Counted from the first letter of the stretch, positions 35,503 through 63,263 are shown. The stretch is DNA of 64,000 nucleotides from Candidatus Nanoarchaeia archaeon (GCA_035293285.1 DATDOM010000066.1:20249-84248), one strand, 5' to 3'. Translations and numbers: made by a program. The notes: a model not told the origin generated them from the sequence alone.

Positions 35503-36645
35503 TTGAATAAAAGAGGGTTAGCCGGCAGGGAGTACTACATAGACTTATTAGATAAAAATACAAATTCTTTCAGAAAAGGCGAAGGGAAAAATATTGCACT
35601 CCTCGGCCCAAGAAGATGCGGCAAGACTTCAATTCTAAAGCACCACGCCCAAAACTCAGGCGAGATTATTTCAGTTTACATTGACGTTGAAAAAATCAGC
35701 CTGAATCCTGAAAATTTTGCTGTTGAGTTTGTGTGGAATATAATCCAGTCTTCTGTCAAAAAAACCTTTTCAGAAAGCGAGGGCATTGGATTTCTTGAAA
35801 AAATAAAAAAACACGAAGCTGAACTCGGTAAAAATTCTTTTTCTTTGATAAAAACAATCGAAAATGAACTATTAAAAATAAAGCCTGACCAGAGGCTTTT
35901 GGTAAAAAGTGCATTTGATTTTGCCAATGTTTTTGGAACAGAGAAAAACAAAAAAATCCTCCTGTTATTGGACAATTTTGAAAATATTTTTGATTTGAAC
36001 AATTTTTCTCAGGTAAAAGATGCCATTTCATTAATAGATTATGGCGCAAAATATGTCAGATATGTTGTTGCCAGCTCTGCCGTAAGGGAATGCATCTCGC
36101 TTCTGAAAAATTTTGAATGCTTTGAAATAAAGAATCTCGAAAAATCAAAGTGTGTTGAGTTAATTGAAAGCATTATCGGAAATGCTAACAGAAAAGCCTG
36201 TGAAGAAATTTTTTCATTCAGCAAAGGCCATCCGTTTGTTGCGGTCTCCATTGCAAAAAGATTTCTTGAGACAAAAGACGCAAAAAAAGCATTTTTAGTG
36301 GAACTCCTTGTAAAAGACAGTCCTGTCTATAATTACTGCAGCGAATCATACAATTATTATTACAATCGTGCACGCGGCCAGACTCTGCTCAAGACTATCC
36401 TGAAAGTTGTTGCAAGTGAAGAGCTCAGGCTAAGCGAGATAGCAAAGAAAATTTACAGAAGCGCGCCTGTAACAAAGGCAATTCTTGAAAGGCTAATTGA
36501 TGCGGATATAATCCACAAAAAAGACAATAAATTCTATTTTGGAGATGACGTTCTTAGGGTGTGGGTCAAACTGACTTCTGATGGTTACGATTTCATTGAT
36601 TCTATTGATGATAAAATTTTGGAGGAAGCTGGCAAAAAACTATGA
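35503..36645 (+). CDS. Arch_ATPase (PF01637-like) AAA-type NTPase with C-terminal wHTH
   Basis: TTG start. LAGREYYIDLL, Walker A LLGPRRCGKTS, Walker B-like ILLLLDNFE, and a C-terminal LRLSEIAKKIYRSAPVTKAILERLIDADII. Confidence 0.75.
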   Translation: MNKRGLAGREYYIDLLDKNTNSFRKGEGKNIALLGPRRCGKTSILKHHAQNSGEIISVYIDVEKISLNPENFAVEFVWNIIQSSVKKTFSESEGIGFLEKIKKHEAELGKNSFSLIKTIENELLKIKPDQRLLVKSAFDFANVFGTEKNKKILLLLDNFENIFDLNNFSQVKDAISLIDYGAKYVRYVVASSAVRECISLLKNFECFEIKNLEKSKCVELIESIIGNANRKACEEIFSFSKGHPFVAVSIAKRFLETKDAKKAFLVELLVKDSPVYNYCSESYNYYYNRARGQTLLKTILKVVASEELRLSEIAKKIYRSAPVTKAILERLIDADIIHKKDNKFYFGDDVLRVWVKLTSDGYDFIDSIDDKILEEAGKKL

Positions 36646-39140: not shown

Positions 39141-40958
39141 ATGGCAGATACAAACCAAGATAATCCAGAATCAGGTTCGCCCGTTGTGAAGATAGATTTA
39201 GTCATAAATATTTTGACCCGAATCACAACGCTTCAAGACCAGATGGAAGAAACAATAGATACAAAGAATAAGTACAGATTGCTGCTTTTTGAGCCCAAAT
39301 TATTGTTTGGATACAAAAAAGACTTTGCTGCATTTTTTGTTGCTTTTAACCTATACAAAGATTACTGCTCTTCTGTAATGGGCGCTGAAGAAATAAGGAG
39401 AGAGATAAATAAAATAAGGATATATGATGCGCGTTTAGCCCTTAGCATAGAAAACTTATTGGGCTTATCAAATAGTTATGGCTCTTTATTCTCCGGTTTG
39501 ATTGCTGCATTACGGCAAGGCAAAGAGTATTTTGTTTCATATATTTCTACCCATGACAAAGAATTGGCTTTAAGGGCCAAATCAATAAGCAACAATAGAG
39601 TATCGAGCCAATTGACCTTCCTGTTTTCCTCCATTAGCGGCCGAGAAGTTGATTACCTCCTTTCATACAAAAATGATTCCGGCAACTGGGGCAATTACTC
39701 CATAAATAATAGGATAGAATTTTTCATATCAAGAGTGAATTTGTACTTAAGAGGAGGCAATGAAAGCAATAATCAATTTAAGGGATTGTTAAATGATTTT
39801 GGTGACAAGGAAGTTACCGTTTCAATCTTGAAAAACAAAGCTGTCATGTACTTGTGGAAATATAATGAACAAATAAAATTCCTTAATTCCCTTATAGAGT
39901 TATGTAAAAAATCAGGAGAGAGCGGAGAATGGAAAGGGTTTTTTGGGAAGCAGGGATTTTGGACTAATATTGACAAATATGCCGCCAGATTGGAAAAAGA
40001 GTTTTCCAATGAGGAGTTCGCAAAAACCATAATTTCAAAAAAGAAAGAAATTGGGGAGAGCCCGGAAGGGTGGGGGGGCAGTTGGAACGGAGTGAATCTT
40101 GCGACTCCCGGATTATTGAATAATTTGCTGTATAAATTAAATCATCCTTCTTTTCAAAGGAAAATGATAATAATTCCGGCATCCCAGGAATTAAGAATAA
40201 TTTTTGAGAATAGGGAAGCTGTATTGAAAGAAAACAGGGATAATCATATAAAAGAACTTATTGGAATCATAACAAATACAGGCGGTTTAAAATCTAAAAA
40301 AAGAATAGCTGAAAATTTCAGGTCAGAATTAATAGGTTATAGTAAAAAATCAATAGAGCGTTTGGGTGAAGATTTATCCAGGTTCGCGAAGGTTGCAAAT
40401 GAGCCGTTGTTATCTTATGAGGAATTCATGGAAGAGTTTGACAAATACACTTTAAAAATAGACCCGCAAACACTCTGGAGCAGCATAAGCCGTTTGTCAG
40501 GCATAATGAAATCAAATGACAGTTACACAGCAGATTCCATAAACAACTTTAAATTTCTAAGAAGCATAAGCGATTTGACTTTGGTTAGTGGCGCAGACTT
40601 GTCAGCAAAGCAAGCATTGTTAAAGATAGAGATGCTTAGGAGCTTTGACCACTTAAACGATGAAGACATAAAAAATTTGGAAAGCTTGGTTCCAAAAGCT
40701 GAAGGCTTATTGGTTAAACTAAATAATTTAGGAGAATATTTAAAATCCAAAATAAATGAGAGTTACACTCTCAGACCTGAGTTTATCCTGAATCTGGACT
40801 TTAATAATATCAGAATAAGAAATTTAAACAATGATTTAGGTTATGTGAGAAAAGTTCTCTTAAGGCTCGTTAAGGATTTCAGGATTAAAGAAGTTGCAGA
40901 TCAATCTTACTTTACCAGCAGTACGAAAGATAATAGAATAGAAAACAGGGGTGCTTAA
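39141..40958 (+). CDS. 605-aa soluble helical protein, unknown family
   Basis: The ATG directly abuts the upstream TAG, with AGGTGG 5-10 nt upstream. No motif recognised. Confidence 0.75.
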   Translation: MADTNQDNPESGSPVVKIDLVINILTRITTLQDQMEETIDTKNKYRLLLFEPKLLFGYKKDFAAFFVAFNLYKDYCSSVMGAEEIRREINKIRIYDARLALSIENLLGLSNSYGSLFSGLIAALRQGKEYFVSYISTHDKELALRAKSISNNRVSSQLTFLFSSISGREVDYLLSYKNDSGNWGNYSINNRIEFFISRVNLYLRGGNESNNQFKGLLNDFGDKEVTVSILKNKAVMYLWKYNEQIKFLNSLIELCKKSGESGEWKGFFGKQGFWTNIDKYAARLEKEFSNEEFAKTIISKKKEIGESPEGWGGSWNGVNLATPGLLNNLLYKLNHPSFQRKMIIIPASQELRIIFENREAVLKENRDNHIKELIGIITNTGGLKSKKRIAENFRSELIGYSKKSIERLGEDLSRFAKVANEPLLSYEEFMEEFDKYTLKIDPQTLWSSISRLSGIMKSNDSYTADSINNFKFLRSISDLTLVSGADLSAKQALLKIEMLRSFDHLNDEDIKNLESLVPKAEGLLVKLNNLGEYLKSKINESYTLRPEFILNLDFNNIRIRNLNNDLGYVRKVLLRLVKDFRIKEVADQSYFTSSTKDNRIENRGA

Positions 40959-43877
40959 GTGGCAGACGCGCATGGTGCAGAAGGTGGAGGAGATGCCAAG
41001 GGAGGAGGCAAAGCAGGCTTTTTTTCTGAATGGGTAGAAATTGGCAGGAATTGGTTTAAAAGAAAAGTACCATTTGTAGACAGGTTCAGATTTGGGAGAA
41101 GGAAAGTAGGTGACAGGCCGCATCCAATTCAATATGAGCTTCAGAGCACCTGGATAGAAAAAAATACCAATTTGTTTGGCACCACTTTAAAGAGGGTAGA
41201 AAACGAGTGGGCTAAATTGGCAGTTTCAATGGGTGAAGGGCAAGACCCTAACAAAGGTTTTCTGGAAGATCCTCAAGGGATAGTTCCTCTTTACCAGAAA
41301 CTCGGGGTTTATGCCGACTTGGAAAGGATACCCCTGGAAGTAAACTGGTTTGAAACAGGAACGGGATTTCATGAAAGCAAGTTGTCATTTGAGATGCCTG
41401 AAGAAGCTGTTTGGAGAAAATATGGCTGGATAGAAGATGAGGTAAAAAAATTAAAGAAAAACTCAAGCAAAATCAAAGCAATAAGTGATAATGTAAAGAT
41501 AAAGAGGATTTCACTTCACCCGGGAACAGTCATTCATGAAGGCAAAATTGAAGAAGATATCTATGCTTTTGGCATTGAAAGGGCAAAACAAATGATAGGG
41601 GAAATGACAGCTTATTCTGAAATACTTAGCGTAGGCTATTTAAGACAAAAAGGTGTCGGCACTGAAGTTAGAACAAAAATTGATAATCTGATAAAACAGT
41701 TTACTTCGTTATTCCAGCAAATTGCGGAAATGGAAAATGAGGCATATAGTTTGCTCCAGGATTTGACCGGTGATGCCAAAATACTAAAAGGAAGATGGGA
41801 ACTTATAGCTGACCAGACTGCGCCAGAGTCAACAAACGTATCAACAATAAGATTTCCCCATACTTTTAGAATTATCAGGCAATATGCACTTCTGGAAATA
41901 ACTGAAAAAATAGAGAAAAAAACCGGAATTACTACTGAGAGCTATGAAAATAAAAGAGTAGTTACTTCTTACATAGATCCCAATCAGCATACTGCTACCA
42001 GTAATATTTATACAATAGAAAAGCAGAAACTTAATGATGAATTGGCATCAATAAACAGCATTATGACTGACGAATTGAAGTATATAGTTCGTGATATTCA
42101 GAGTTTTGAGCAATTGGTTAACAATACTGGAAGTTTTGAGAATGTCATAAAAGGGATTATCAGAGCAGAAAGAAATAATTTGATTGGCGTTCTTAACAGC
42201 ACCGACCTGCCAGAAGCCAAAATACAGAATATAACAGATTTGATTACTCATCCCGATCCTACTTTGGCCAGTTTGCTCGAAGAATCACTCAAAAATATTG
42301 TTTCAATAATTTCAAGTGTGGTAAACTCCAGAAAATCCGCTGACGAAAAAGTGGATGATATAGAAAACTCGTTGCTCAATTCATTTAGTGCAATCAGGAT
42401 TATTGAAGAGTTCCTTGCATATCACGAAAATGACGTAGTGGGTATTCTAAAGGAACGGGATGATAGGGGGAATAAAAGAAAAGTTGATGATGTTTTTGAG
42501 GATATCAGGCATGTTTTACTCCCAAATGAATTGGCCACAAGCAGTATTATAGACACCATATTAAATGATAAAAATCATCGGGCTCAAATAAAAGCATTAA
42601 TCAATAAACAAAAGGATGAGTTTGTAACGGCAAGAACCATAATTCGATTCATACGAATTTCTGTAGTGAGGAAAAATCTAGATGATAAAGAAGCTGGATT
42701 AAAAACAAGGCTGGAAATACTCAATATCAAGAAATCTGACATTGAATTAAAATTTCTGGAAGAAAAAAAGAGGCTTCAGGATAGGTTAGACGAGATAGAT
42801 GGTATAAGTCCCCGCGATATGCAGGATATTCTTGATTCTATCAGGCCAAAAATTAGCGCCCCGAATGCCGGGACAAAAGGTTTTTACAAAAGACCGGAAG
42901 AGCTAAAGTATGGTTTAGATGAATATGGGTACCCGTTAGAAATTGATCCAGGTAATGGGATAGTGCTAATTGATAAATGGTGGCATGAGATAGGCCAAAA
43001 TGAATGGCAAATGAAGACAATTGCACAAAAACATGAAGGTGCGGATACATTAAGAAAAAATTTGGGCGTTACTGTCAATTATACTTCCAATCCTGGTGAA
43101 AAACCAAAATTAGGGGATATAAACATTGCCGGAACTCCTGCCAGAGAAATACGTTATGTAACTGATCAAAGATTTATAGGGCAGGTCGATATACTTGACT
43201 TAAGTGCGTTTATGTATTCTTATTGGGATGCTGTAAGAGATGATTTAAGGGATGGCAGATACCACCCCCATTCAAAAAGTACTGGTGACTATGTTATAGA
43301 AGCTATGGGGGGATATCATAAGGATTTGGGCGCACCTTATTCCAGAGACTGGGTTCCTGGCTTAAAAAGCAAGGGAATGTTTTTTTCGAGAAGGGGTGTT
43401 GTGCCATTAAAGCCAATTCAACTTCACATAGACGTGCCAACAGAGCTTATTAAAAGTAATCCTGAAACTTTCAATAAGCATATCCCTGATGATGAGAAAA
43501 CAGTAACAAGGGATTACGCCATGAGAATGCCGGACGGCAGTGTAGAAAAAGGAGAAAGGCATCCTTCAAAGTATAATCCAGCATTTGATAGAAGGTCGTG
43601 GCACATTGAAAAATATGTACATTGGGGAAGAATGTATTATTGGGAATGGGCAGGCGGAATAAACAGGTGGTCAGAAAATACATTCCCCCATGTTTCAACC
43701 AGAGGATTGGCATTGTACATAGCCCATCTTGCATCTACAGACACTTATTATTATAAAGAAGCAGAAGAGGCAATCGAAGGGCATTCGTTTGATTACGGAA
43801 CCAGGGGAATGGGTGCATTCCCAATTATGAACCCATTAAGCGGAAAAAACATAGTAGGGGAAGGCACAGAAAATTAA
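40959..43877 (+). CDS. 972-aa protein, unknown family: Gly/Lys-rich N-terminus, long helical middle, conserved C-terminal domain
   Basis: The GTG start directly abuts the upstream TAA, with AGGGGTG upstream. The C-terminal ~320 aa are paralogous to the C-terminus of the 832-aa protein. Confidence 0.8.
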   Translation: MADAHGAEGGGDAKGGGKAGFFSEWVEIGRNWFKRKVPFVDRFRFGRRKVGDRPHPIQYELQSTWIEKNTNLFGTTLKRVENEWAKLAVSMGEGQDPNKGFLEDPQGIVPLYQKLGVYADLERIPLEVNWFETGTGFHESKLSFEMPEEAVWRKYGWIEDEVKKLKKNSSKIKAISDNVKIKRISLHPGTVIHEGKIEEDIYAFGIERAKQMIGEMTAYSEILSVGYLRQKGVGTEVRTKIDNLIKQFTSLFQQIAEMENEAYSLLQDLTGDAKILKGRWELIADQTAPESTNVSTIRFPHTFRIIRQYALLEITEKIEKKTGITTESYENKRVVTSYIDPNQHTATSNIYTIEKQKLNDELASINSIMTDELKYIVRDIQSFEQLVNNTGSFENVIKGIIRAERNNLIGVLNSTDLPEAKIQNITDLITHPDPTLASLLEESLKNIVSIISSVVNSRKSADEKVDDIENSLLNSFSAIRIIEEFLAYHENDVVGILKERDDRGNKRKVDDVFEDIRHVLLPNELATSSIIDTILNDKNHRAQIKALINKQKDEFVTARTIIRFIRISVVRKNLDDKEAGLKTRLEILNIKKSDIELKFLEEKKRLQDRLDEIDGISPRDMQDILDSIRPKISAPNAGTKGFYKRPEELKYGLDEYGYPLEIDPGNGIVLIDKWWHEIGQNEWQMKTIAQKHEGADTLRKNLGVTVNYTSNPGEKPKLGDINIAGTPAREIRYVTDQRFIGQVDILDLSAFMYSYWDAVRDDLRDGRYHPHSKSTGDYVIEAMGGYHKDLGAPYSRDWVPGLKSKGMFFSRRGVVPLKPIQLHIDVPTELIKSNPETFNKHIPDDEKTVTRDYAMRMPDGSVEKGERHPSKYNPAFDRRSWHIEKYVHWGRMYYWEWAGGINRWSENTFPHVSTRGLALYIAHLASTDTYYYKEAEEAIEGHSFDYGTRGMGAFPIMNPLSGKNIVGEGTEN

Positions 43878-47576: not shown

Positions 47577-49568
47577 TTAATATAATCTTCCTGGAAACAT
47601 TTGTATTCCTGTTTTTGATTCTACAATATCCACTGTTCTTTTGTAGAGGGCATTATAATTAAAATCAAATTTAGTTCCGGACTGGTATAAGCCGTATTTT
47701 TTTACCATTTCAATTGCCTTGGGCTCTCCGGCAGCAGCGTGCCTCATTATGCCTGACATTGTATCATTCATTAATATCCAAAATAGTTTACGCTGAGATT
47801 CAGGCTTGCCATCTGCGAGGGCGATGTAGTTTGTTGCCAATGAATTTCCTACACCTACTCCGCCTCCATCATGTATAGCCACGGAAGTTGCGCCATTCAT
47901 TACAGCTGAAGCGAAATTTGCCATCACATATGTGGCTATCGGGTCACTGCCGTTTGGCATTTCCCTAGTTTCTCTTTGGGGTGAAGCAACCGAGCCTCCA
48001 TCTAACTGGTCTCTTCCGATTATGATTGGAGCCTTAATCTTGCCATCTGCAACCAGTTTATTGAACAGCATCGCAACAGCAGCTCTTCCCGGCAACTCCA
48101 TGCCACCATAGCCTGCCCAGACAACTCTTCCAGGAAGGCCGGGCTCTACAGGAACATATTCTGAAGCTAAATTAAGCCAGTTAGTGGCAATAGGGTCATC
48201 ACTAAGCAAAAGTTTAGCATAGTGGTCAGTTGTCCTTAAGTCTTTTACATCGTTAGAAAGAACTTCCCATCTGAAAGGGCCCCTTCCTTCGCAAAAAAGA
48301 GGGCGCACGAACATTGGAATAAATCCTCCTATATTTTTTGCCTCATTGAATCCGGCATGCATTGCCGTTCCGACCAAAAAATTTCCATAGTCAGTAACTA
48401 TTGCCCCGCGATTCTGAAGCTCCAACATCTGCCTTGCTTGCATAACTACACTTTCCAATGATTTTTCGAGATATTCCTTAGGTGAGTTATTTCTCTTGTC
48501 AAGAGCTTGTTCCGGAGTCCAGCCAACAGGACAGTAAAAGAAATTTTTGTAAGTGTTTTTTCCTTTAGTGTTTGTTTGCAATACTTCGTGAATTGAAGAT
48601 TGGGATGTTACAAAATGAGGAGTTATTTGTTTTTCAACCAGATAATTCAATAAATCAACAGCATTGGTATGAACTCCTATAGATATTGCTTCGTCGCGTT
48701 CAGCATATTCTCTTGCTATCGCAAAAGCTTCATCTATGGTTTTTGCTTTTTTATCCAGATATCCTCTGGATATTGTTTCGTCAATTCTTTCTTCAGAAAC
48801 TTCTGCTATCATAGCGATTTTGTTTTGTTTTCCGCTGGTTGGGCTTGTTACCATTGTGAATGCAAGCGGCTGAGCCCCGCTCATATGCCCCAGCCCTTCT
48901 GAAACCATTAAGCGCTGCTCTAATTTACTCATTGAAGAATATTTTGGAGATATTTCTGCGACCTCTACTGCCTTACCTGCAGTTTCATAAGTTCCCTGTG
49001 CGATGCCTTGAAATCCCATATAAATCCAGCTTCCTGCCGTCATTTGGCCAAAAGATATCATTCCTGCAGCCTGATATTGTGGGAAAAATTCTGCCCAGTT
49101 TCCAACCATCATAGAATTTGCAATGATAACTCTCGGCTTGTCTTTGCCACGAAAATTGCCCCCAATAAAATAGTCTCCTCCTGCAGATACGTGAAGAGTT
49201 TCATATGGTTTAAGGTTTCTTAGAGAGAGCTGTATATTGTTAAAATCTTGCCAATTTCTGGCTGCCTGTCCTGTCCCTCCATAGATAATCAGACCTTCGG
49301 GGTCATCACCATGGCACAAATTACTAATCATTGCCCTCAATAAGGCTTCAGTTGGCCAGCCAGCTTTTGTCGTAGGACTCAAAGCAGATTTTCCCCTCGG
49401 AAGGGGGTTTTTTTCGCGGTCTTTCCAATCAACTTTAGATAAAATTTTGAAATCATCTGGCATAGAATTAATCCTGTATCTTTCCTCAGGATCAGATATT
49501 GCCCTTTGGCCAGCGATAACTTGTCCGTATGCAGTTAACTGTTCTAAATTAGTAATTAGTATCCCCAT
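47577..49568 (-). CDS. hutU: urocanate hydratase
   Basis: 663 aa. IYGGTGQAARNW, GQMTAGSWIYMGFQGI, GLGHMSGAQP and RDQLDGGSVASPQRET motifs. Confidence 0.85.
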   Translation of the reverse strand: MGILITNLEQLTAYGQVIAGQRAISDPEERYRINSMPDDFKILSKVDWKDREKNPLPRGKSALSPTTKAGWPTEALLRAMISNLCHGDDPEGLIIYGGTGQAARNWQDFNNIQLSLRNLKPYETLHVSAGGDYFIGGNFRGKDKPRVIIANSMMVGNWAEFFPQYQAAGMISFGQMTAGSWIYMGFQGIAQGTYETAGKAVEVAEISPKYSSMSKLEQRLMVSEGLGHMSGAQPLAFTMVTSPTSGKQNKIAMIAEVSEERIDETISRGYLDKKAKTIDEAFAIAREYAERDEAISIGVHTNAVDLLNYLVEKQITPHFVTSQSSIHEVLQTNTKGKNTYKNFFYCPVGWTPEQALDKRNNSPKEYLEKSLESVVMQARQMLELQNRGAIVTDYGNFLVGTAMHAGFNEAKNIGGFIPMFVRPLFCEGRGPFRWEVLSNDVKDLRTTDHYAKLLLSDDPIATNWLNLASEYVPVEPGLPGRVVWAGYGGMELPGRAAVAMLFNKLVADGKIKAPIIIGRDQLDGGSVASPQRETREMPNGSDPIATYVMANFASAVMNGATSVAIHDGGGVGVGNSLATNYIALADGKPESQRKLFWILMNDTMSGIMRHAAAGEPKAIEMVKKYGLYQSGTKFDFNYNALYKRTVDIVESKTGIQMFPGRLY

Positions 49569-49623
49569 TCCTGGGAAAAATAAGAAGTTTTTATAGTTTT
49601 CTACCTAAAAGAAATAACAAATT

Positions 49624-50505
49624 TCAAAAATATAATTTATCAAAAACTGATAGATATTTTCTTGTCAAATCATCATGCAAATCAATCGCTTTTCTTCCTT
49701 TTCCCATCATCAAACTGACAAATGCGAAAGCGATGTCGTGAAGCCCGTTTCTTGCAGGCTCAAAATCAAGCACATCCTTAATCGACGAGCCGATGCCGGC
49801 AATGTTGTGATTTTTTATTGTATTTGCCCACTCAACTGAAAATGCAAATGCCTTTGCCTCCTCGTCGTGTTTGTTTGAGAGTGTCGGAGTTAAGATATGC
49901 CCTATTTCGTGGCCAATGACGAGCATAACTGCATCAAGGGAATTTTCCCTTATAAAAATTTCTTTTGTTTTGTTGAGAGAGAACCCAAGGATTCCATTAT
50001 TCCATTTTCCAAATACAGAATGAGCTAACTTGAAGTCTGAATCATTTAGCAAGTATATTGCCATTTTTGGCATTTTCTTATCCATCATAAGCTCAAAGGT
50101 TTCTTTTACCGCATCAATAATTTCAGTTTTGTCGTCGACAAATTTGGTTTTTGGCCGAGACGGCAGAAGAAAAACCTCAGGTGTAAATGAGTGGTAAAAA
50201 GATTCGGAAGATTCCTTATATGAGAAAATATAGAAGCCGTTAGTACTAACTCTCACTTTTGGCGCTGAGTAGTTTAAATCAGGATTTTCTTTGGATGAAT
50301 CTACCCCATAAACGGGCCGGTTTACCAGTAAGTACCCCGTGTCAGGAGCAGACTGTCCAAAATAACTGTTTAGTCTGTACTCCAAAGGCAAGTTTGAGTA
50401 ATCCATGGATTTGGATAAGATAACTGAAATAAAAGCCTTTGCGAATCTGAGGTTATAACCCTTATAAGCCCCAAATTTAGCCTTAATAGACTTTTTAATT
50501 GCCAA
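49624..50505 (-). CDS. ImmA/IrrE-like HExxH metallopeptidase
   Basis: TTG start. VIGHEIGHILTPTLSNKHDEEAKAFAFSVEW fits the HEhGH...E-EA-x-FA pattern of COG2856 peptidases. Confidence 0.6.
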   Translation of the reverse strand: MAIKKSIKAKFGAYKGYNLRFAKAFISVILSKSMDYSNLPLEYRLNSYFGQSAPDTGYLLVNRPVYGVDSSKENPDLNYSAPKVRVSTNGFYIFSYKESSESFYHSFTPEVFLLPSRPKTKFVDDKTEIIDAVKETFELMMDKKMPKMAIYLLNDSDFKLAHSVFGKWNNGILGFSLNKTKEIFIRENSLDAVMLVIGHEIGHILTPTLSNKHDEEAKAFAFSVEWANTIKNHNIAGIGSSIKDVLDFEPARNGLHDIAFAFVSLMMGKGRKAIDLHDDLTRKYLSVFDKLYF

Positions 50506-50940
50506 AATAGGGATAAATTCCTAGTGCCTAACTTTTCAATTGACACTCACTTTCGAGTATATGGGGTTCATGAAAATAAGTTTGGCAGCTGTAAAAGGGG
50601 GTAAAAGAACTAAATAAATTCTAAATCGTTAATAGTCCACGCGCCTAGTAAGAGGCAAGCCAGTACATCAGTCCCACTCATTGTCAAGGCACCATATCTT
50701 AAAGGTTTTAGTCTACCCTATTTCATTCGGATAGGGAGGGCAATTTGGGACTTTCAAAAAATTAAGAATTATGGCTTATCTCTTTAAGCTGCCCTGTAGA
50801 TCAAATCTGCCCCCCTGCCAGTATTCTTTTTTACCGGATTTATGAGTCAAACCATAAACTAAGAAAACTACATGAGTCACTTCCTGCTTTTAACTCTCAC
50901 TTCTTATGAGTAAGATTCATACTGAAAGTCTTCTTACAAC

Positions 50941-51130
50941 CATTTTTAGTTGCCTAAATGGATATTTAAAAAAATATAATATAAAGATTATGTTATAAAA
51001 TATATTAATTAACAAATAGTATATAACATAATTTTTATTAAATAACTTATAGAATAATATCTTTGAACAAATTAATTAAACTAAATTATTTAATAATTAA
51101 TAGTATATTTTAGTTATTTCTGAGTTTTTA
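50941..51130. other. extremely AT-rich non-coding block (possible DNA-unwinding element)
   Basis: About 190 nt of almost pure A/T with repeated ATAGTATAT(A/T). No ORF. Confidence 0.3.
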
Positions 51131-51311
51131 TGAGTAAAAATAGAATTTTTGAGAAAGCCAATGAAACAAAAAAATTTCGATAAAAAATCGAAAAATCATT
51201 CAGAAAAATTTGGCGGGTTTTTGTAATTTGACGTCTTTAAAATAAAAACAAATCCATAAAAAAATATTGCAATTACAAAAATTTATAAATCACCTATTGT
51301 GTGATTTTCCA

Positions 51312-51467
51312 ATGGACGAAAGACAGTGCAAAAAATGCAAGGCAAACATGCACAAAAAAGGCGTGATGCAGAGCGGAAATTCAAAATACGAGATTTACAT
51401 TTGCAATGAATGCGGAAGCGAAGAAATGAAGGCAATCAGTGTGAATGAAAAATATCACCGTCAGTAA
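51312..51467 (+). CDS. small Zn-ribbon protein (51 aa)
   Basis: CKKC...17 aa...CNEC. The ATG at 51312 is preferred over the TTG at 51267. Confidence 0.5.
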   Translation: MDERQCKKCKANMHKKGVMQSGNSKYEIYICNECGSEEMKAISVNEKYHRQ

Positions 51468-51665
51468 TTCTAAAATTTGCCTTATTTGTTCGAAGAATTT
51501 ACCCTACTTAAAGGTTCAGAATAAGGTATCGGATTGATTTTCTCGATGACAAAACTCAAGATGGTTTATTTTTGCAGATTTTTAGGTAAAAAAGAGTTCG
51601 CCTAATACGCATTATGCGAAGTTTTATATACTAGTATACACATCTTATGCAAAAAAGGTGTCTGA

Positions 51666-52481
51666 ATGCTTGGTATTCTAGAAACAGAACTTAAAATCAG
51701 GGGATTTAGCGATAGAACAGTGCAAAGTTATCTGGCACATAACAAGAGTTTTCTCCAGTTTATAAATAAAGAGCCTCAGCTGGCGGATACAAGTGATGCA
51801 AAAAGATACCTTGCGTATTTGATGTCAGACCGAAAATACAGCCCAAGGAGCGTAAATCTTGCCCTAAGTAGCGTGAAGTTCCTTTTTAGGGAGATCTTGC
51901 AAAACACGGCCTTTAATGCAGTCAGGGCACCAAAGATAGAGAAAAAGATCCCGACAGTTCTCTCAAAAGATGAGATAAGGAAGCTTTTGGACGCTGCAGT
52001 TAACCCAAAACACAGGCTTTTGATTAAGTTTCTTTACTCGACAGGCATGCGTGTGAGTGAATGTGTAAATATTCAAATTGATGACCTGGATTTTGATGAA
52101 AAAATCGGCAAAATAATGCACGGAAAAGGCAACAAGGAAAGGTATTTGATACTTTCTGAAGGACTTATCAAAGATCTCAAAAGCTACCTTGAGACCAAAA
52201 AAGACAATGGAGATTATGTGTTTTCAGTTAAAGGCAGTCCAATCACGACAAGACAGGCACAAAAAATTGTGAAGGAAACTGCAAAGAAAGCAGGCATAAA
52301 GAAGAGGGTTTTCTGCCATGCCCTGAGAAGCAGCTTTGCGACACATTTGCTTGAATCCGGGACGGACATAAGGGTTATACAGGAGCTTTTAGGGCATGCT
52401 GATCTTTCTACCACTCAGATTTACACAAAGGTGTCAACTGAGCAGCTAAAAAAAGTGAAAAATCCTCTTGATCAGCTATAA
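51666..52481 (+). CDS. xerA: tyrosine recombinase, XerA/XerC-D-like
   Basis: 271 aa. N-terminal SAM-like domain (RTVQSYLAHNKSF), catalytic residues in STGMRVSE, HALRSSFATHLL and LGHADLSTTQIYT. Confidence 0.85.
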   Translation: MLGILETELKIRGFSDRTVQSYLAHNKSFLQFINKEPQLADTSDAKRYLAYLMSDRKYSPRSVNLALSSVKFLFREILQNTAFNAVRAPKIEKKIPTVLSKDEIRKLLDAAVNPKHRLLIKFLYSTGMRVSECVNIQIDDLDFDEKIGKIMHGKGNKERYLILSEGLIKDLKSYLETKKDNGDYVFSVKGSPITTRQAQKIVKETAKKAGIKKRVFCHALRSSFATHLLESGTDIRVIQELLGHADLSTTQIYTKVSTEQLKKVKNPLDQL

Positions 52482-52512
52482 AATTAAAACTTTTAATAAA
52501 AAATAAAAAGAA

Positions 52513-53064
52513 TTAAAATCCAAACTCCTGCAAGCTGAACTGCAAGATGTTTTCTTTTGTCTGCAGAGTCTTGAATTCCTTATCAAGCCTCAAGTGCGGC
52601 TTAAGGTTGATATAGCGCTTTATTACAGGAACTCCCTTCTCGATAAGCGAAGTCACGTAGCTTGCCGCAAGATGTTCAGAAATCCCAAGTCTTTGCGCAA
52701 TATCTCCGTAAGTGACTGCGCCTTTCTCCTCTTCTAAAGTGTAGATTACCAAAAAAACTTCCTGCTCTTTTCTGTCAAGCCTTTTTACGTTAAATTCTTT
52801 TTTTCTTTCAGACGGCACCCCTGAACTGGCCTCAATATACATCTGAAGATTGTCAACTCTTGAGCTAAGCCTGTCAAGCTTGTTTTCAAGCTCGCAGATG
52901 TACTCAAAATTTGAAGAAATCTCATTAGTGTTCTCGTTAATTGACTGCAAATGCTCGTCAAACTCGTGCCTGATTTTCGTAAATTCAAGCTTTAGCATCC
53001 TGTTTAGCCTGGATATCTCCAGCCCCACCCCTCTAAGAAAAATTTTTCCTAAAATACCAATCAC
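52513..53064 (-). CDS. coiled-coil plus winged-HTH protein
   Basis: 183 aa. C-terminal QEVFLVIYTLEEEKGAVTYGDIAQRLGISEHLAASYVTSLIEKGVPV. Confidence 0.6.
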   Translation of the reverse strand: MIGILGKIFLRGVGLEISRLNRMLKLEFTKIRHEFDEHLQSINENTNEISSNFEYICELENKLDRLSSRVDNLQMYIEASSGVPSERKKEFNVKRLDRKEQEVFLVIYTLEEEKGAVTYGDIAQRLGISEHLAASYVTSLIEKGVPVIKRYINLKPHLRLDKEFKTLQTKENILQFSLQEFGF

Positions 53065-53107
53065 CCCCCAACCTCAACCAACGATGAGGGGTTTAAAAAA
53101 GTTTCGT

Positions 53108-53797
53108 TTAAGCCTGATTTGACCTCGACAATTTGTAGATGTAGTGTATTTCTTTGCCTTCCTTAATTACTGCAATTTCACCAGATTCTGCTATTTCATC
53201 CATTAAGCGGTAAAATGAGCTTTTTGAGCAAAATTTCTGCTCGTCAACGACCATTTCCTTAAGTTTTAGGGAAGATATTTTTCCATATTTTTTAATGTAG
53301 GAGATTGCCATGCTCTTGACGTATTCCTTTGAATTTCTTGTGATGTTTTTGATGATTTTTTCCTTTATTGAGTACTTTTTGTCTTCAAGCCTTTCAAGCC
53401 TTCTTTTTATAGTCGTCAAATCCTCACTTGGTTGCACAGGAATTTCTCTTTGCACTGCCCGAACAGGCTGCATTTGGGCCTGTGGCACCCTCACTCTTGA
53501 AAGCTCTTCAACCCTATAATTCAAGTCCCTTAGCTTTGCCATTATGCCTTCAAATGAGTAATAATCGTCAATTATTTTTCTTATTTCTTCTCTTGTTTTT
53601 GGCATGTAATTCAACTCATTTTTCATCTGCCTAATGACGTCTTCTTGCTCTAATGATTTTTTGTAAAAAAAGTTGACCCATTCAAAGAGGTTTGAGGTAT
53701 CTTTTTTGACATTTGAAAATGACTTTTTTACAATCAAGTTAATCTGCATGAGTCTCTTTTCTGTTTCAATATTTTTTTGCTCCTTTTTCCAAAACAT
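53108..53797 (-). CDS. coiled-coil plus winged-HTH protein
   Basis: 229 aa. C-terminal KISSLKLKEMVVDEQKFCSKSSFYRLMDEIAESGEIAVIKEGKEIHY. Confidence 0.6.
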   Translation of the reverse strand: MFWKKEQKNIETEKRLMQINLIVKKSFSNVKKDTSNLFEWVNFFYKKSLEQEDVIRQMKNELNYMPKTREEIRKIIDDYYSFEGIMAKLRDLNYRVEELSRVRVPQAQMQPVRAVQREIPVQPSEDLTTIKRRLERLEDKKYSIKEKIIKNITRNSKEYVKSMAISYIKKYGKISSLKLKEMVVDEQKFCSKSSFYRLMDEIAESGEIAVIKEGKEIHYIYKLSRSNQA

Positions 53798-53837
53798 AAA
53801 AACAGATAAATACTAATTATTATTTAAATATATTTAT

Positions 53838-53947
53838 TTCTGGGACTATCTTGGGACTATGCTGGGACTGGATTGGGACTATCTTTAGATGTCAAAATAA
53901 TTTTCTGGGACTATCTTGGGACTATGCTGGGACTGGATTGGGACTAT
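53838..53947 (+). repeat. iteron array: two exact 45-bp units, each with four TGGGACT heptamers at 11-bp phasing
   Basis: TTCTGGGACTATCTTGGGACTATGCTGGGACTGGATTGGGACTAT occurs at 53838-53882 and again at 53903-53947. Heptamers start at 53841/52/63/74 and 53906/17/28/39. Confidence 0.85.
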
Positions 53948-54472
53948 AATTTTTTAATAGAATTAAAGTAAGTTTTAGAAAAATTGATAGGTCATTCAAA
54001 GATAGTTCAAAAAATTGGACAAAAAAATGGATTGATTTTGGCAAGATTTTTGCAATAAAAAACAAGGGAAAAATGGTATAAAAGGACCTTATAAAAGCCG
54101 CAAAAAAGAGGAGCTTTTAAATGAAATTTTGTGGGAATTTGGCTTTAAAATAGGCTGAATTCTGCAGAAAAGAAGGTTAAAAGTGAGAACCAATGTGAGT
54201 CAACTTGGTCGATATAAGGGCTATTTTAGCCTAGGAATGGTATTTTCAGCCATATTCTTAGATAAATAAGGATGTAAAGGTGATTTACGAGCAAAAAGTG
54301 AGGTTTTAAGATTTATTTTCTATATAGAAAATTTAAATATTTATATGTAAAAAGGCAAAGCAGCGGGAAGAAGAGAGATTTGACGAGATTTATTGAGATA
54401 TTATTTACAATATTGAAAAAATATAAACAAATATAAATATAAGAAGTTTACTCATGAAAAGTGAGAGTTCAA

Positions 54473-55111
54473 ATGAGTAAAAAGATGTCAAAATCGGCCT
54501 TGGCTATTATTTTATCACGATTAGAAGGGTTTTCTAAGCCAAAAGTGGACCAGGAGCAGTATGTAACAGACAGTGAAGTGGCTGCATTTAACCTCTGGAA
54601 CGCCTATATATTGGGAGATATAGAAGAAAAAGAGATAGCTGACATTGGGTGCGGCACTGGAATTCTTGGTATAGGGACCCTAGTGCTTGGCGCAAAGAAG
54701 GTCTTCTTTGTGGACTCTGACAAAAGTGCCCTGGAAACGCTAAAAATCAATATTTCAAAGGTGAGAAGTGAGGGTTACATCATAAATGGTGCCTTTGAAA
54801 TCATGAATAAGGATATAAAAGACCTGGATTTTAAGGCAGAGGTAGTAGTACAAAACCCGCCTTTTGGGACCAAAAACAAGCATGCCGACGTCATATTTCT
54901 TGAAAAGGCACTAAAAACAGCCAAAATTATCTATTCATTCCATAAAAGCGAGACTAAGTCATATATAAACAAGTTTTGCAATGAGAAAGGCGCAAAAATT
55001 ACCCATGTTTGGGACTTTGACTTCCCACTCAAATCTACCTATAAGTTTCATAATAAGAGGATTCACAGAATAAATGTAAGCTGCTTTAGGATAGAATCAG
55101 GTCATTTATAA
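54473..55111 (+). CDS. METTL5/COG2263-type N6-adenine RNA methyltransferase
   Basis: DIGCGTGILGIG and the VVQNPPFG catalytic motif. The ATG at 54473 is preferred over the GTG at 54461. Confidence 0.75.
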   Translation: MSKKMSKSALAIILSRLEGFSKPKVDQEQYVTDSEVAAFNLWNAYILGDIEEKEIADIGCGTGILGIGTLVLGAKKVFFVDSDKSALETLKINISKVRSEGYIINGAFEIMNKDIKDLDFKAEVVVQNPPFGTKNKHADVIFLEKALKTAKIIYSFHKSETKSYINKFCNEKGAKITHVWDFDFPLKSTYKFHNKRIHRINVSCFRIESGHL

Positions 55112-60029: not shown

Positions 60030-60055
60030 GCGGGTTTCGCTCTGCTCAAGCCCGC
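60030..60055 (-). terminator. hairpin immediately after the stop of the ahcY remnant (possible original ahcY terminator)
   Basis: GCGGGTTTCGCTCTGCTCAAGCCCGC with stem GCGGG/CCCGC. It abuts the TAG stop at 60055-60057. Confidence 0.3.
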
Positions 60056-60285
60056 TAAGTCCCTTCCTGCCAGCTTTCAAGATATTTTTTCTGTTCGGCA
60101 GTCAATACATCGATTGAGATTTCCATTGCATCAAGCTGAAGCCTTGCAATGTCGTCGTCTATCTGCCCAGGCAGCTGGATTACTTCCGGCTTCATTTTTC
60201 CCTTGTTCTTGACTGCGTATTCGCACGCAAGAGCCTGGCCGCAGAATGAAGTTGACATTACTTCGCTTGGGTGCCCCTCCGCTCC
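60055..60285 (-). pseudogene. ahcY: orphaned 3' end of ahcY (last 75 codons plus stop)
   Basis: Translates as (G)AEGHPSEVMSTSFCGQALACEYAVKNKGKMKPEVIQLP...KKYLESWQEGT. By hand alignment 54 of 75 residues are identical to the C-terminus of the intact ahcY at 61998-62225. Confidence 0.85.
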
Positions 60286-60307
60286 TAATTTAAATTTTTA
60301 GATACAA

Positions 60308-60853
60308 CTACTTTATTTGCCCTGCTCTAATCTCTTGTGCGTAATGCGCAGCTAACTTAAAAAATTCTTCTAATTCATCTTGATTGTTGAAACGCTTTAT
60401 ATAAACCAATCTTCTTGTAGATTTCAAAAAAAGAAAAGCTGTGAAAGGATTTATAGAAACAAAAAATAAATCATAAAAAGCATTCAATATGCGTGGCTTT
60501 TTTTCTATCTTTTCCTCTTTTCCCAACCATTTTCTTGCAAGATGTTTAACAATTGGCAACTCATGACTGGTCAAATAAGTCTGAATGTTGTCTAACCAAT
60601 AATTTATTGCCTTTGTTATCTCGTTGGGATGTAATAGAGCTACGTGTTTAATGGCATCAACTACATCATCATCTAAAATCAAAACCAAATTCTCCCCGTA
60701 GTTAAATTTGAGCAAAGAACCGAAAATATGGGCTTGTATACTGCACCTTCTAAAATCTGAGATATTTTGTATTTCTCCTTTATCAATTATATCAACTTGG
60801 ATATCAGGATATTTATTTTTTATAATATCGGCAATTTGTTTTGATGTAAGCAT
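60308..60853 (-). CDS. hypothetical protein (181 aa) inside the HEG cassette
   Basis: ORF only, 18 nt downstream of the endonuclease gene. Confidence 0.5.
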   Translation of the reverse strand: MLTSKQIADIIKNKYPDIQVDIIDKGEIQNISDFRRCSIQAHIFGSLLKFNYGENLVLILDDDVVDAIKHVALLHPNEITKAINYWLDNIQTYLTSHELPIVKHLARKWLGKEEKIEKKPRILNAFYDLFFVSINPFTAFLFLKSTRRLVYIKRFNNQDELEEFFKLAAHYAQEIRAGQIK

Positions 60854-60871
60854 TTGATAATAATTTATTTG

Positions 60872-61771
60872 TCATGATTTAAATTTAACTAATTTTAAAT
60901 AAACTTCAATTTTCGATCTCTTTATAATGTGCCTGCTATCAATCATTTTAATAAATCTTAAAAAATCCCTTTGCCTTGTAATAACAATATTATACCACTT
61001 CCAGTTCCCTCTTGTTTCATTACAAACTCTGCTGTAAATTCCAACTTTATTCAAAAGTTTTTGAATATGTAAAGCATGAAACTCAGAATCAGTTGTTATT
61101 TTTATAGTTGGTATTGTAATTCTCGAATTTTTATAAATATAAATAGTTCCGTCACCGTCAAATAATCCAGTTAGGTAAGAAGATATTTCTTTTTCTGAGA
61201 AATCCAAATTAGGGTAATTTTTTGTTTTCCATCCTATCTTTTTTGCAATTATTCTCCCAACAACAGATGGAGGATAAGCGTAATATGTTTCATCTCTTTT
61301 GTCTTTCTTTATGTAAATTTTACATTCAAAAGTACTCCAGATTAAGCCACAAAATCTGTCAATCAATTCTTTGTGCTGATTAGAAAAATAGAATATTTGT
61401 CCTTTGCCTGATTTTATCAAGTTAAGATGCCCATCAGAATGAATGAGTCCAATTAGTTCAGGAGAAATATGGTTATTTTTGATACTTATCGATTTCGCAT
61501 TTCTTGATGACAAAATCAATGAATTTATACTTGAGTCTAATTTTAACATATCCAAGAATGAAAAATACAGTTTTGTAGATGGCTTGACTTTACCAGTTCT
61601 TATTTGATAAAGAGTAGTTTCATCATGATTTAAAATTTTTGCTAATTCTTTTATGCTGTAAAATTCATTAATTTTTTTGAATATTTTAATTCTTTCATCA
61701 CCCCCCCAGTTAACAAATATAGAATAATCTGTCAAATCTTCCTTTGTAATTTTTAAAATTGAATTTTCCAT
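60872..61771 (-). CDS. double-motif LAGLIDADG homing endonuclease with N-terminal HTH
   Basis: Motifs LIGLIHSDGHL and YLTGLFDGDGTIY. N-terminal ELAKILNHDETTLYQIRTGK. The ATG at 61771 (MENSILKI) is preferred over the longer tracked ORF. Confidence 0.8.
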   Translation of the reverse strand: MENSILKITKEDLTDYSIFVNWGGDERIKIFKKINEFYSIKELAKILNHDETTLYQIRTGKVKPSTKLYFSFLDMLKLDSSINSLILSSRNAKSISIKNNHISPELIGLIHSDGHLNLIKSGKGQIFYFSNQHKELIDRFCGLIWSTFECKIYIKKDKRDETYYAYPPSVVGRIIAKKIGWKTKNYPNLDFSEKEISSYLTGLFDGDGTIYIYKNSRITIPTIKITTDSEFHALHIQKLLNKVGIYSRVCNETRGNWKWYNIVITRQRDFLRFIKMIDSRHIIKRSKIEVYLKLVKFKS

Positions 61772-61997
61772 TTTAATCAAGCCTCCAAAGTTTTTTATTT
61801 TCCTGAAAACTTTGAAGTGGTAAGAAAAAGAGAATTTGAAGCGAAACTGCGTAATTGATTTTCTGGCAAAGCCAAAAATCATTATTTAGCAGTTTTGCGT
61901 ATTCTCTTTTTTGATTTGAAAATCATGTTAACTTAAATACTTGGCGTCGACAAATGTCCAGTGGCCAGTGAAAAAGAAAAAATAAGAAAAGTGGTAC

Positions 61998-63263
61998 TTA
62001 TGTACCTTCTTCCCAAGAATTCAGGTATTTAATTTGTTCTTCATCCAATTCGTCAATCACTACCCCATAAGCTTCTAACTTAAGTTTTGAAATGATATTG
62101 TCTATTTCTTCTGGAAGCTGGATTACTTCCGGCTTCATTTTTCCTCTGTTCTTTGCTGCATATTCGCAAGCAAGAGCCTGTCCACAGAAAGATGTGTCCA
62201 TAACCTCACTTGGATGCCCCTCTGCAAGAGATAAATTAACCAAGCGCCCTTGCGCAAGGCAAGTTATTTTATGCCCATTTTTTAGTATAAAATCCTCCAC
62301 TAATGGCCGGACTTCTTTCATACTTTTTGCTATCGATTTTAATCCTTTGTAATCAATTTCGACGTCAAAATGCCCTGAATTGCATATAATTACGCCATCT
62401 TTCATTTTTTCCATGTGCCTTGTCTTTATTACTTTAATATCTCCAGTCACAGTTATAAAAACATCTCCGCATTTTGCAGCGTCGTCCATTTTCATGACTT
62501 GGTAACCGTCGTACAATGCCTGCAAAGCCCTAAATGGGTCAATTTCTGTTACAATAACATTAGCTCCCATTCCCTTTGCCCTTAAAGTAACTCCTTTTCC
62601 GCAAGAGCCATATCCAGCAACAACAACATTTTTTCCGCAAACTAGAACATTTGTCCCCCGTTTAATTCCATCCCAAGTTGATTCGCCAGTTCCAAGATAA
62701 TTGTCAAGCAGATGTTTTGTCTTGTTGTCATTCACTGCAATCATCGGATATTTGAGTGCCCTGTCTTTTTCCATTGCCTTCAATCTTATGACTCCTGTTG
62801 TAGTTTCCTCACATCCTGCAATTATATCTTTAATCAGATGAGCGTGCTTTTGGTGTATTTCGCTGACCAGATCGCATCCGTCATCAATTGTAATGTGCGG
62901 CTTAAAGGCAATTACGTTATTCAGGTATCTGTAATAGTCTTCGCGGTTTTCTCCCTTGTATGCCCAGACTTTTATGCCGTCTTTTGCAAGCGCTGCTGCA
63001 ACATCATCCTGCGTGCTTAATGGATTGCATCCTGTGATTGCAACATCTGCGCCTCCTGCAATCAAAGTCCTTACAAGAATTCCTGTTTCTTTTGTGACGT
63101 GAAGCGCCATTCCAATCCTTACGCCCTTAAGCGGCTTTTCTTTTGAAAATCTTTGTTTGACTTTCATCAGGGCCTGCATCCTGGATTCTGCAATTTCTAA
63201 ATTAAGCAGCCCCTGCTCTGCAAGCTTCATGTCCTTAACTTCGTAATTTGCTCCTTTGTCCAT
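61998..63263 (-). CDS. ahcY: adenosylhomocysteinase (archaeal short form)
   Basis: 421 aa, uninterrupted. GCNPLSTQDDVAAAL, CEETTTGV, VVAGYGSCGKG, NSGHFDVEI and LAEGHPSEVMDTSF motifs. Confidence 0.9.
   Translation of the reverse strand: MDKGANYEVKDMKLAEQGLLNLEIAESRMQALMKVKQRFSKEKPLKGVRIGMALHVTKETGILVRTLIAGGADVAITGCNPLSTQDDVAAALAKDGIKVWAYKGENREDYYRYLNNVIAFKPHITIDDGCDLVSEIHQKHAHLIKDIIAGCEETTTGVIRLKAMEKDRALKYPMIAVNDNKTKHLLDNYLGTGESTWDGIKRGTNVLVCGKNVVVAGYGSCGKGVTLRAKGMGANVIVTEIDPFRALQALYDGYQVMKMDDAAKCGDVFITVTGDIKVIKTRHMEKMKDGVIICNSGHFDVEIDYKGLKSIAKSMKEVRPLVEDFILKNGHKITCLAQGRLVNLSLAEGHPSEVMDTSFCGQALACEYAAKNRGKMKPEVIQLPEEIDNIISKLKLEAYGVVIDELDEEQIKYLNSWEEGT

Follow-up and report, generated by a model that had tools for sequence, protein, structure and literature searches.

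A XerA/dif locus with winged-helix genes and phased iterons, probably inherited vertically in Woesearchaeota

The stretch of DNA analyzed here, 64,000 nucleotides (nt) from Candidatus Nanoarchaeia archaeon (GCA_035293285.1 DATDOM010000066.1:20249-84248; hereafter, the window), contains at positions 49,569-54,472 a locus that encodes a protein with an HExxH motif, a Zn-ribbon protein, the tyrosine recombinase XerA and two predicted winged-helix proteins, wH183 and wH230, and includes two spacers with repeated sequence motifs. An initial annotation made from the sequence alone interpreted this locus as an island of plasmid- or provirus-like character, integrated between hutU and a methyltransferase (MTase) gene. 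Almost all of the sequence features named in that annotation do exist. Comparison with related genomes indicates that the locus is probably not an insertion but a chromosome-maintenance locus that Woesearchaeota (DPANN) inherit vertically. The XerA/dif part belongs to a known type of system; the wH230-wH183 operon, the lineage-wide iterons and the conserved non-coding motifs are uncharacterized.

Gene order is conserved across Woesearchaeota

The host is a Woesearchaeote, with a 229-amino acid (aa) protein that is 100% identical to one named 'Candidatus Nanoarchaeia archaeon'. A scan with one genome per species yielded 80 Woesearchaeota loci of ~20 kilobases (kb) each (labels such as L008 and L022 denote related loci or contigs), which derive from Woesearchaeota/Nanoarchaeota genome bins and in which the identity to wH230 ranges from 62% down to 29%; the proteins encoded in the window were compared with these loci by tblastn. 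In the window, hutU (urocanate hydratase; 47577-49568, minus strand) is followed by the 293-aa open reading frame (ORF) of the HExxH protein (49624-50505, minus strand), the spacer IGR2 (50506-51311), the Zn-ribbon gene (51312-51467, plus strand), xerA (51666-52481, plus strand), wH183 (52513-53064, minus strand), wH230 (53108-53797, minus strand), the spacer IGR1 (53798-54472) and a small MTase gene (54473-55111, plus strand) that starts with the ATG at 54473.

The order MTase-[long spacer]-wH230-wH183-XerA-Zn-ribbon-(HExxH protein)-PAC2 is shared in Woesearchaeota down to ~30% protein identity and, in the relatives with ~60% identical wH230, extends to GAN/RecJ, UppS, p165, RpoL, MTase, spacer, wH230, wH183, XerA, Zn-ribbon, PAC2, proB and proA. 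The replication gene GAN/RecJ-Cdc45 is syntenic, at a distance of ~3.5 kb. The genes for wH230 and wH183 are side by side in 79 of the 80 loci, most of which have RpoL and MTase on one flank and PAC2 on the other, and, of the 50 loci with enough sequence to tell, 30 have xerA next to the pair. A XerA protein identical to that of the window is found in several metagenomes, with the same context every time.

Identical gene order in relatives is the observation that the initial annotation had itself named beforehand as speaking against an island, and the island interpretation falls because this order is conserved as core genome. No empty site was found among the 80 species representatives or in the loci L008-L015, where the block occupies the same place. 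Viral and plasmid databases, in which kin of the small proteins might have been expected under the island interpretation, contained no relatives of the three proteins searched, namely wH230 (IMG/VR, INPHARED phages and PLSDB plasmids), wH183 (PLSDB) and the HExxH protein (INPHARED); the Zn-ribbon protein was not among the queries. The GC content of the locus does not deviate from its surroundings.

The one gene in this neighborhood that does look acquired is hutU. It is the only window gene tested that is missing from all 80 loci, in which the HExxH gene abuts PAC2, and its GC content is 41.8% compared with 37.9% for the window; given this combination, hutU appears to be an insertion and is probably a lineage-specific gene gain. 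Thus, the flank that had been taken as chromosomal when the island was delimited is itself lineage-specific.

XerA and its predicted dif site

The 271-aa recombinase passes the cut-off of the NCBIfam XerA equivalog family NF040815 (265.5 bits against 220) and, in a search of Protein Data Bank (PDB) sequences, aligns over its full length with the solved XerA of Pyrococcus abyssi (4a8e; 1.5e-51) and Thermoplasma acidophilum (5hxy). Inspection of the translation reveals the complete R-K-H-R-H-Y set of catalytic residues (GMRVSE, KGNKER, HALRSSFATH, GH..IYT), so that the initial identification of a XerA-like tyrosine recombinase with all catalytic residues was correct. By these sequence criteria, the recombinase is the chromosomal housekeeping XerA.

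A dif site that the initial annotation overlooked is predicted at 51595-51622, ending 43 nt before the ATG of xerA. This site of 28 base pairs (bp), AGTTCGCCTAA-TACGCA-TTATGCGAAGT, has an 11-6-11 layout, with 9 of the 11 arm positions palindromic around the 6-bp spacer TACGCA. It scores 32.5 bits with a dif half-site matrix, compared with 7.0 bits for the runner-up, and is single-copy within the 64 kb of the window; the relatives have at most one high-scoring site per ~20-kb locus. Upstream, 127 nt separate the site from the stop codon of the Zn-ribbon gene, a conserved neighbor upstream of dif and xerA. The Zn-ribbon gene noticed initially is borne out by the CxxC...CxxC pattern in its 51-aa product, by its being called as a 51-aa gene also in L001 and by 56-74% identity in relatives (tblastn). 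Downstream, the TATA-like sequence TTTATATA (51623-51630) abuts dif and, together with the Shine-Dalgarno sequence AAGGTG (51655-51660), makes up the putative promoter and leader of xerA (51623-51660, plus strand).

Among the 39 loci with sequence upstream of xerA, 30 have a dif site within 1.5 kb of the gene; 17 of these sites are 33-100 nt from the ATG (mode 45 nt) and 5 are at ~578 nt. Many of the sites in relatives played no part in building the matrix. The spacer sequence varies among relatives, and distant loci carry the dif variant GTCGTATAATGTATATTATACGAC, the center of which, like ATAATGTATATTAT in the sites of L060 and L074, presumably corresponds to the core of the Escherichia coli dif. 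In L008 and L009, a 172-aa Zn-finger/HNH-like ORF (L008:10157-10675) is located between dif and xerA, so that dif is ~578 nt upstream. This spacing is shared by L017, L025, L028, L034 and L035, which suggests the same insertion as in L008 and L009.

The archaeal dif sites described in Pyrococcus abyssi and Sulfolobus span 28 bp, in which a 6-bp spacer separates two imperfect inverted repeats of 11 bp each (Cortez et al. 2010, PMC2958812). The locus resembles these systems in having a single XerA and a 28-bp 11-6-11 site that is unique in the available sequence, but differs from Thermococcales, in which dif is not beside xerA (PMC2958812), in that the site lies 43 nt from the start of xerA and overlaps its promoter. 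Modules of xerA and dif have been reported for some archaea and are the rule for the bacterial XerS/difSL and XerH/difH (PMC5357621), where, as here, recombinase gene and site form one module, implying coupled expression and action. XerS and XerH are bacterial, FtsK-dependent and act on sites with atypical spacer lengths (PMC5357621), whereas the present module combines an archaeal XerA with the canonical 6-bp spacer. By analogy, two XerA dimers would synapse both dif copies of a chromosome dimer, leading to its resolution into monomers. Because the TATA box abuts dif, XerA bound to this site would also throttle its own promoter.

Integron-like module arrays at dif in relatives

In L022, an array of accessory gene modules of 0.7-1.8 kb (L022:12138-19774) fills the 7.4 kb that separate dif from the Zn-ribbon gene, which stays beyond the inserted modules. 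The products include a metallophosphoesterase, a DnaJ-domain protein and the toxin-antitoxin pairs HicA/HicB and ParE with an antitoxin. The modules are separated by repeat elements of 135-150 nt that have inverted, dif-arm-like ends and fold strongly as single-stranded DNA (z-scores -4.2 to -8.7). Related arrays or elements are found at L046:12791-16885, L008:10732-14279 and L014:10331-12017, and also in L047, L056 and L058. The dif half-sites are 4 times denser in the array part of the locus than elsewhere. The window has no modules, that is, its platform is empty.

The arrangement in these relatives, with a module array next to a recombinase gene and its primary site, recalls integrons (integron-like or IMEX-like), and the layout is presumably similar to that of the pdif modules of Acinetobacter. 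Unlike IntI, XerA lacks the IntI-specific extra domain: the match to TIGR02249 reaches 227.9 compared with the cut-off of 265 and breaks into two stretches, the alignment with IntI4 (2a3v) is likewise split, and the protein has a length of only 271 aa. Most of the archaeal integrons in the literature are attC clusters that lack an integrase (PMC9668308).

The wH230-wH183 operon and its iterons

The initial annotation had recognized two genes on the strand opposite to xerA as encoding a coiled coil followed by a winged helix-turn-helix, and AlphaFold models agree with this assignment. In these models, wH230 combines long helices with a winged helix at the C-terminus (approximately residues 160-222), and wH183 has an 80-residue N-terminal helix followed by a helix-turn-helix (HTH) or winged helix; the predicted local distance difference test (pLDDT) values are 69 and 68. 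All Foldseek matches have E>1e-3 and are to generic winged-helix or HTH proteins (Hop2, cullin WHB, pNOB8 AspA, TubR, Lrp-type regulators, LexA and MntR), so that a specific function could not be derived from the fold search. The possibility that the two proteins are paralogues was rejected given that they show no detectable mutual similarity. With 430 clusters (50% identity) in a set of 1.84 billion representatives, the wH230 family is small and lineage-restricted; among the 150 best proteins listed, there is none with sufficient length for a fused enzymatic domain. At all loci inspected, the operon holds only these two genes and no motor NTPase.

The last ~20 residues of wH183, FKTLQxKENILQLSLQEFGF (window 52513-52580), hardly vary within the close clade and are predicted to be disordered. 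A PCNA-binding (PIP-like) motif, QxSLxEFGF, was considered for this C-terminus and discarded, being kept in 30 of the 77 homologues, in the closer clade only. Just past the stop codon of wH183 lies the palindrome ATTAAAACTTTTAAT (52483-52497), which reads TGATTAAAAGTTTTAATCA in relatives (for example, L018:11310-11330) and the 9-mers of which are enriched in the locus. Across the 80 loci, its core TAAAA[CG]TTTTA has 45 matches in total, 33 at the wH183 stop and 12 at the adjacent end of xerA; it may be a terminator hairpin or a further protein-binding site.

Upstream of wH230, the eight phased TGGGACT iterons reported initially are present as exact copies within 53841-53945, in two clusters of four with 11-bp spacing. 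The array as a whole (53837-53947) consists of four iterons (53841-53880), a core (53881-53905) and four more iterons (53906-53945), and the two clusters are contained in 46-nt blocks, 53837-53882 and 53902-53947, that are 100% identical. The window contains 19 copies of TGGGACT compared with 5.1 expected, a number that was reached in 0 of 100 shuffles. In relatives (79 loci), TCCCA occurs on one strand upstream of wH230 at a mean of 6.7 per 250 nt against 0.17 expected, a ~40-fold excess, with spacings that peak at 11, 22, 33, 44 and 55 nt. The usual layout in these genomes is 4-5 repeats, a conserved palindromic core such as TTTATCGTCGATAAAT, 4 repeats and then AAAGATTTAAATAA ~30 nt before the ATG. 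The last of these is the counterpart of the TATA/B recognition element (BRE)-like box of the wH230-wH183 operon in the window (53820-53830, minus strand), a nearly invariant block in the alignment. Individual iterons differ in the relatives, unlike the identical 46-nt blocks of the window, which suggests recent duplication or gene conversion.

A similar design is known from plasmid centromeres that double as operators, namely R1 parC with ParR (PMC2241845) and tubC with TubR (PMC6009700): two clusters of direct repeats, spaced by about one helical turn, flank a core that precedes the operon encoding the binding protein. Two winged-helix proteins, TubR and pNOB8 AspA, are among the weak fold matches. 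Unlike in parC/ParR and tubC/TubR, neither the operon nor its surroundings contain a gene for a ParM, ParA or TubZ motor, and unlike plasmid centromeres, the locus is chromosomal and lineage-wide, its proteins have long coiled coils and their binding is a prediction. A further precedent is TrmBL2, a winged-helix protein. In Thermococcus kodakarensis, TrmBL2 forms a boundary at dif (PMC11840125); it has many low-specificity sites and is not encoded beside dif, whereas here sequence-specific iterons are combined with dedicated neighboring genes. Homology of TrmBL2 to the proteins of the locus was not detected.

Because the iterons are phased like those of plasmid centromere-operators, and given the precedent of TrmBL2 at dif, one or both wH proteins would, most likely, bind cooperatively along one face of the DNA. 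The resulting higher-order nucleoprotein complex would autoregulate the wH230-wH183 operon and may also serve as an architectural or centromere-like mark beside dif.

Promoter-like modules and short motifs in the spacers

Against the background of the window, the iterons and the 22-nt inverted repeat are both far beyond chance. The inverted repeat, AACTCTCACTTYTYATGAGTAA (50892-50913, plus strand, and 54448-54469, minus strand), has these two as its sole matches in the window at up to 3 mismatches, with 0 expected, and the pair extends to 41 nt at 78%. The 11-bp direct repeat ATAAGAAGTTT occurs in two exact copies compared with 0.14 expected, at 49580-49590 (1 nt from the position first given) and 54439-54449. 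Both repeats had been proposed as boundary signals; their existence is certain, but the boundary role is not upheld in either case. The right copy of the direct repeat is in the MTase promoter module, and the arms of the inverted repeat, judged by sequence and conservation, are a conserved pair of putative outward-facing promoter-like modules, not element termini.

The MTase promoter module (54405-54472, plus strand) consists of the B palindrome, from ~54405, a TATA-like run and the A element (54448-54470), which is the right arm of the repeat. Nearly all close relatives have, in the same succession, the TTTTCAATATTGAAAA palindrome, a TATA-like run, GTTTACTCRTGRAAAGTGAGAGTT, a gap of 5-6 nt and the MTase ATG. 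The second module (50891-50928, minus strand) adjoins the AT-rich tract discussed below and faces the HExxH gene, with an A element (50891-50913), the left arm of the repeat, and a degenerate B palindrome (50916-50928). Each module, with its palindrome, TATA box and 24-bp element over the presumed transcription start, would drive the flanking gene that faces outward. Weaker copies of the A core are internal to the locus at 54179-54191 and 54284-54305, along with a B-like palindrome at 54319-54331 (all plus strand).

The recurrence of (A/C)TGAGTCA-type motifs pointed out initially is genuine, ATGAGTMA being present in 11 copies in the window compared with 3.8 expected, 7 of the 11 within 50842-54480. 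In IGR2, the C motif (50520-50532) and an AAGTGAG-type core (50543-50553) are followed by ATGAGTCA at 50842 and 50872 and by the palindrome TTTCGATAAAAAATCGAAA (51175-51193); this spacer further carries AAGTGAG cores and the TTAGGCACTATGAAA motif. The order of the IGR2 motifs is conserved in L008, L010, L017, L018, L023, L029, L032, L042 and L046, and the spacer is classified, from its motifs, as a predicted divergent control region.

Several other candidates were set aside. A structured RNA in the 0.8-kb IGR2 found no Rfam match at the gathering threshold or at E<=1, and the fold z-score is +0.34. The TCGACGA-type motifs seen in the spacer of relatives proved to be coding sequence ('LDDNY'/'FVDD') of the HExxH gene. 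A function of AAGTGAGAG as a Shine-Dalgarno sequence was dismissed given that xerA has a proper AAGGTG and that, on contig L098, a separate AGGAGGAGGT precedes the ATG; AAGTGAGAG was not found upstream of other genes of the window. Of the 64 matches to the A element in a metagenome-wide scan, 23 are the locus itself and most of the others are chance-like, on contigs with higher GC content. An A element followed ~30 nt on by the TAGTGCCTAAC motif is also present on unrelated low-GC metagenome contigs (L098:500-600, L155 and L150:150-260) that bear small ORFs of virus- or plasmid-like appearance; in L098, the A element directly precedes an ATG with a canonical AGGAGG ribosome site.

The AT-rich tract and alternative explanations

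The AT-rich tract of IGR2 (50941-51152, 87-88% A+T) is unique in the window. The A/T block at 50941-51130 described initially does exist, as the only 150-nt stretch with at least 88% A+T in the window, but at 88% A+T it is not 'nearly pure'. Many relatives hold one AT-rich tract, mostly in the same spacer, and in the distant L065, CTCACTT and AAGTGAG flank an AT-rich tract of ~110 nt in inverted orientation. By definition, an archaeal origin has an AT-rich unwinding element with conserved repeats on its flanks, and WhiP at Sulfolobus oriC3 is an example of an initiator with a winged helix (PMC5333045). A literature search for a Woesearchaeota replication origin returned nothing.

Several points weigh against the interpretation as a chromosome-maintenance locus. 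The uniqueness of dif applies to only 64 kb of the host genome. Both wH models are only moderately confident (pLDDT 69 and 68), with generic winged-helix/HTH matches only. In 20 of the 50 loci that extend far enough, mostly in distant clades, xerA is apart from the wH pair, and therefore the wH proteins cannot be obligate XerA accessories. The pairing of proteins with sites, including all binding steps, the autoregulation and the recombination by XerA are predicted, not experimental, and are drawn from the observed conservation, positions, motif structure and protein families. Finally, an 88% A+T tract with multiple conserved motifs exceeds the needs of a plain divergent promoter and therefore leaves room for an origin function.

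The initial annotation had itself offered another reading, a chromosomal xerA locus beside a replication-origin-like region, the first half of which is strongly supported by XerA and the dif site, whereas the second half is possible but unproven. If the locus is or contains a chromosomal origin, the AT tract would unwind, the AAGTGAGAGTT-type elements or the iterons would be the recognition sites, the winged-helix proteins wH230 and wH183 would play a part like that of WhiP at Sulfolobus oriC3, as initiators or origin accessory factors specific to the lineage, and XerA/dif would be merely adjacent. Like archaeal origins (PMC5333045), the locus combines an AT-rich tract, single in the window and held in the same spacer by many relatives, with lineage-conserved repeated motifs and winged-helix genes; the inverted CTCACTT/AAGTGAG pair of L065 resembles the origin definition, and a winged-helix initiator has a precedent (PMC5333045). 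The synteny of the GAN/RecJ-Cdc45 gene and the iterons beside a winged-helix gene, the classic layout of a plasmid replicon, point in the same direction. Unlike in known origins, there is no orc1/cdc6 nearby: a search for Orc1/Cdc6-like Walker A ORFs found none up to 10 kb away in any of the 80 loci and none in the 10 ORFs of the window that were tested. The motifs of the locus are, presumably, also unlike the published origin-recognition boxes. The motif copies around the AT tract of the window are direct, not inverted (and mostly direct overall), and the copy fixed 5-6 nt from the MTase ATG better fits a promoter or operator. The GC skew has the same sign on both flanks and follows gene orientation; it is uninformative on origin or terminus, given that it mirrors the coding strand and that the two flanks share one orientation. 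On balance, an origin is unlikely. Doubtful, too, is a combined version in which the locus would be the replication and maintenance center of Woesearchaeota, a fixed plasmid-like replicon where wH230/wH183, not a neighboring Orc1/Cdc6, recognize both the iterons and the AAGTGAGAGTT-type boxes, the adjacent AT tract is the start point of replication and XerA/dif is built in.

That the locus is an ancient plasmid-like module, captured and domesticated at the root of Woesearchaeota and now fixed, its plasmid-style functions serving the chromosome, would be in keeping with the two phased iteron clusters upstream of a small operon for DNA-binding proteins, as in R1 parC (PMC2241845) and TubR/tubC (PMC6009700), with a site-specific recombinase beside its own site and with the restriction of the wH230 family to the lineage. 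It is nonetheless very unlikely, given the lack of a motor NTPase or Rep-like gene and of any extant plasmid or virus with wH230 in IMG/VR, INPHARED and PLSDB, and the grouping of XerA with chromosomal XerA, not with integrases of mobile elements. A recent integration of a plasmid or provirus, with the 11-bp direct or the 22-nt inverted repeats as its boundaries and with an integrase, repressors and protease of its own, is extremely improbable: the repeats exceed the chance expectation and the mix of genes superficially resembles a lysogeny module, but the whole block has the same order and chromosomal place across 80 species-level genomes, the recombinase is XerA, viral or plasmid homologues were found neither for the wH pair (wH183: PLSDB only) nor for the HExxH protein, the GC content is not deviant, and the right arm of each repeat falls within the conserved MTase promoter region. 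Vertical inheritance of a chromosome-maintenance locus is the probable explanation.

Other genes of the locus and the window

For the HExxH protein, the alignment of relatives suggests a start at M34 (~50406) rather than the full 293-aa ORF. The gene is syntenic, beside PAC2, in L023, L032, L033, L042, L046, L052 and L053. The original ImmA/IrrE (M78) label is weak, as the match is confined to the HEIGH motif (Pfam PF06114 E=0.078, 13.2 bits compared with the cut-off of 22). A PHROG metalloprotease family matches the protein at 5e-4, and a profile search of PDB sequences gave no match. A profile search for the family retrieved 948 members, of which those listed are hypothetical Woesearchaeota proteins without a Pfam domain; by this search, the protein is assigned to a Woesearchaeota-wide uncharacterized family.

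Elsewhere in the window, the S-adenosylhomocysteine hydrolase gene (60055-63263) looks split into a 421-aa part (61998-63263) and a 67-aa fragment (~60055-60258), with a LAGLIDADG endonuclease ORF (60872-61882) and a 181-aa ORF in between. At 35503-43877, three large ORFs with a common orientation (832, 605 and 972 aa) come after a gene for an AAA-type 'archaeal ATPase' (35503-36645); for the one product checked, that of 972 aa, no Pfam domain is recorded. This group may be a defence or accessory cluster.

Implications

A caution for genome annotation follows from this locus: a recombinase gene, small winged-helix genes, repeats and AT-rich DNA can together mimic a mobile island. DPANN archaea are uncultured or barely cultured, and their chromosome replication, resolution and segregation are almost uncharted. 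Non-coding elements that are conserved so deeply usually mark core chromosome functions. The locus yields testable parts, namely a predicted dif site, two uncharacterized, lineage-conserved DNA-binding proteins and at least five conserved non-coding motifs. If it is true that XerA mobilizes the dif-bounded modules of the relatives, a housekeeping recombinase would be an archaeal gene-capture platform.

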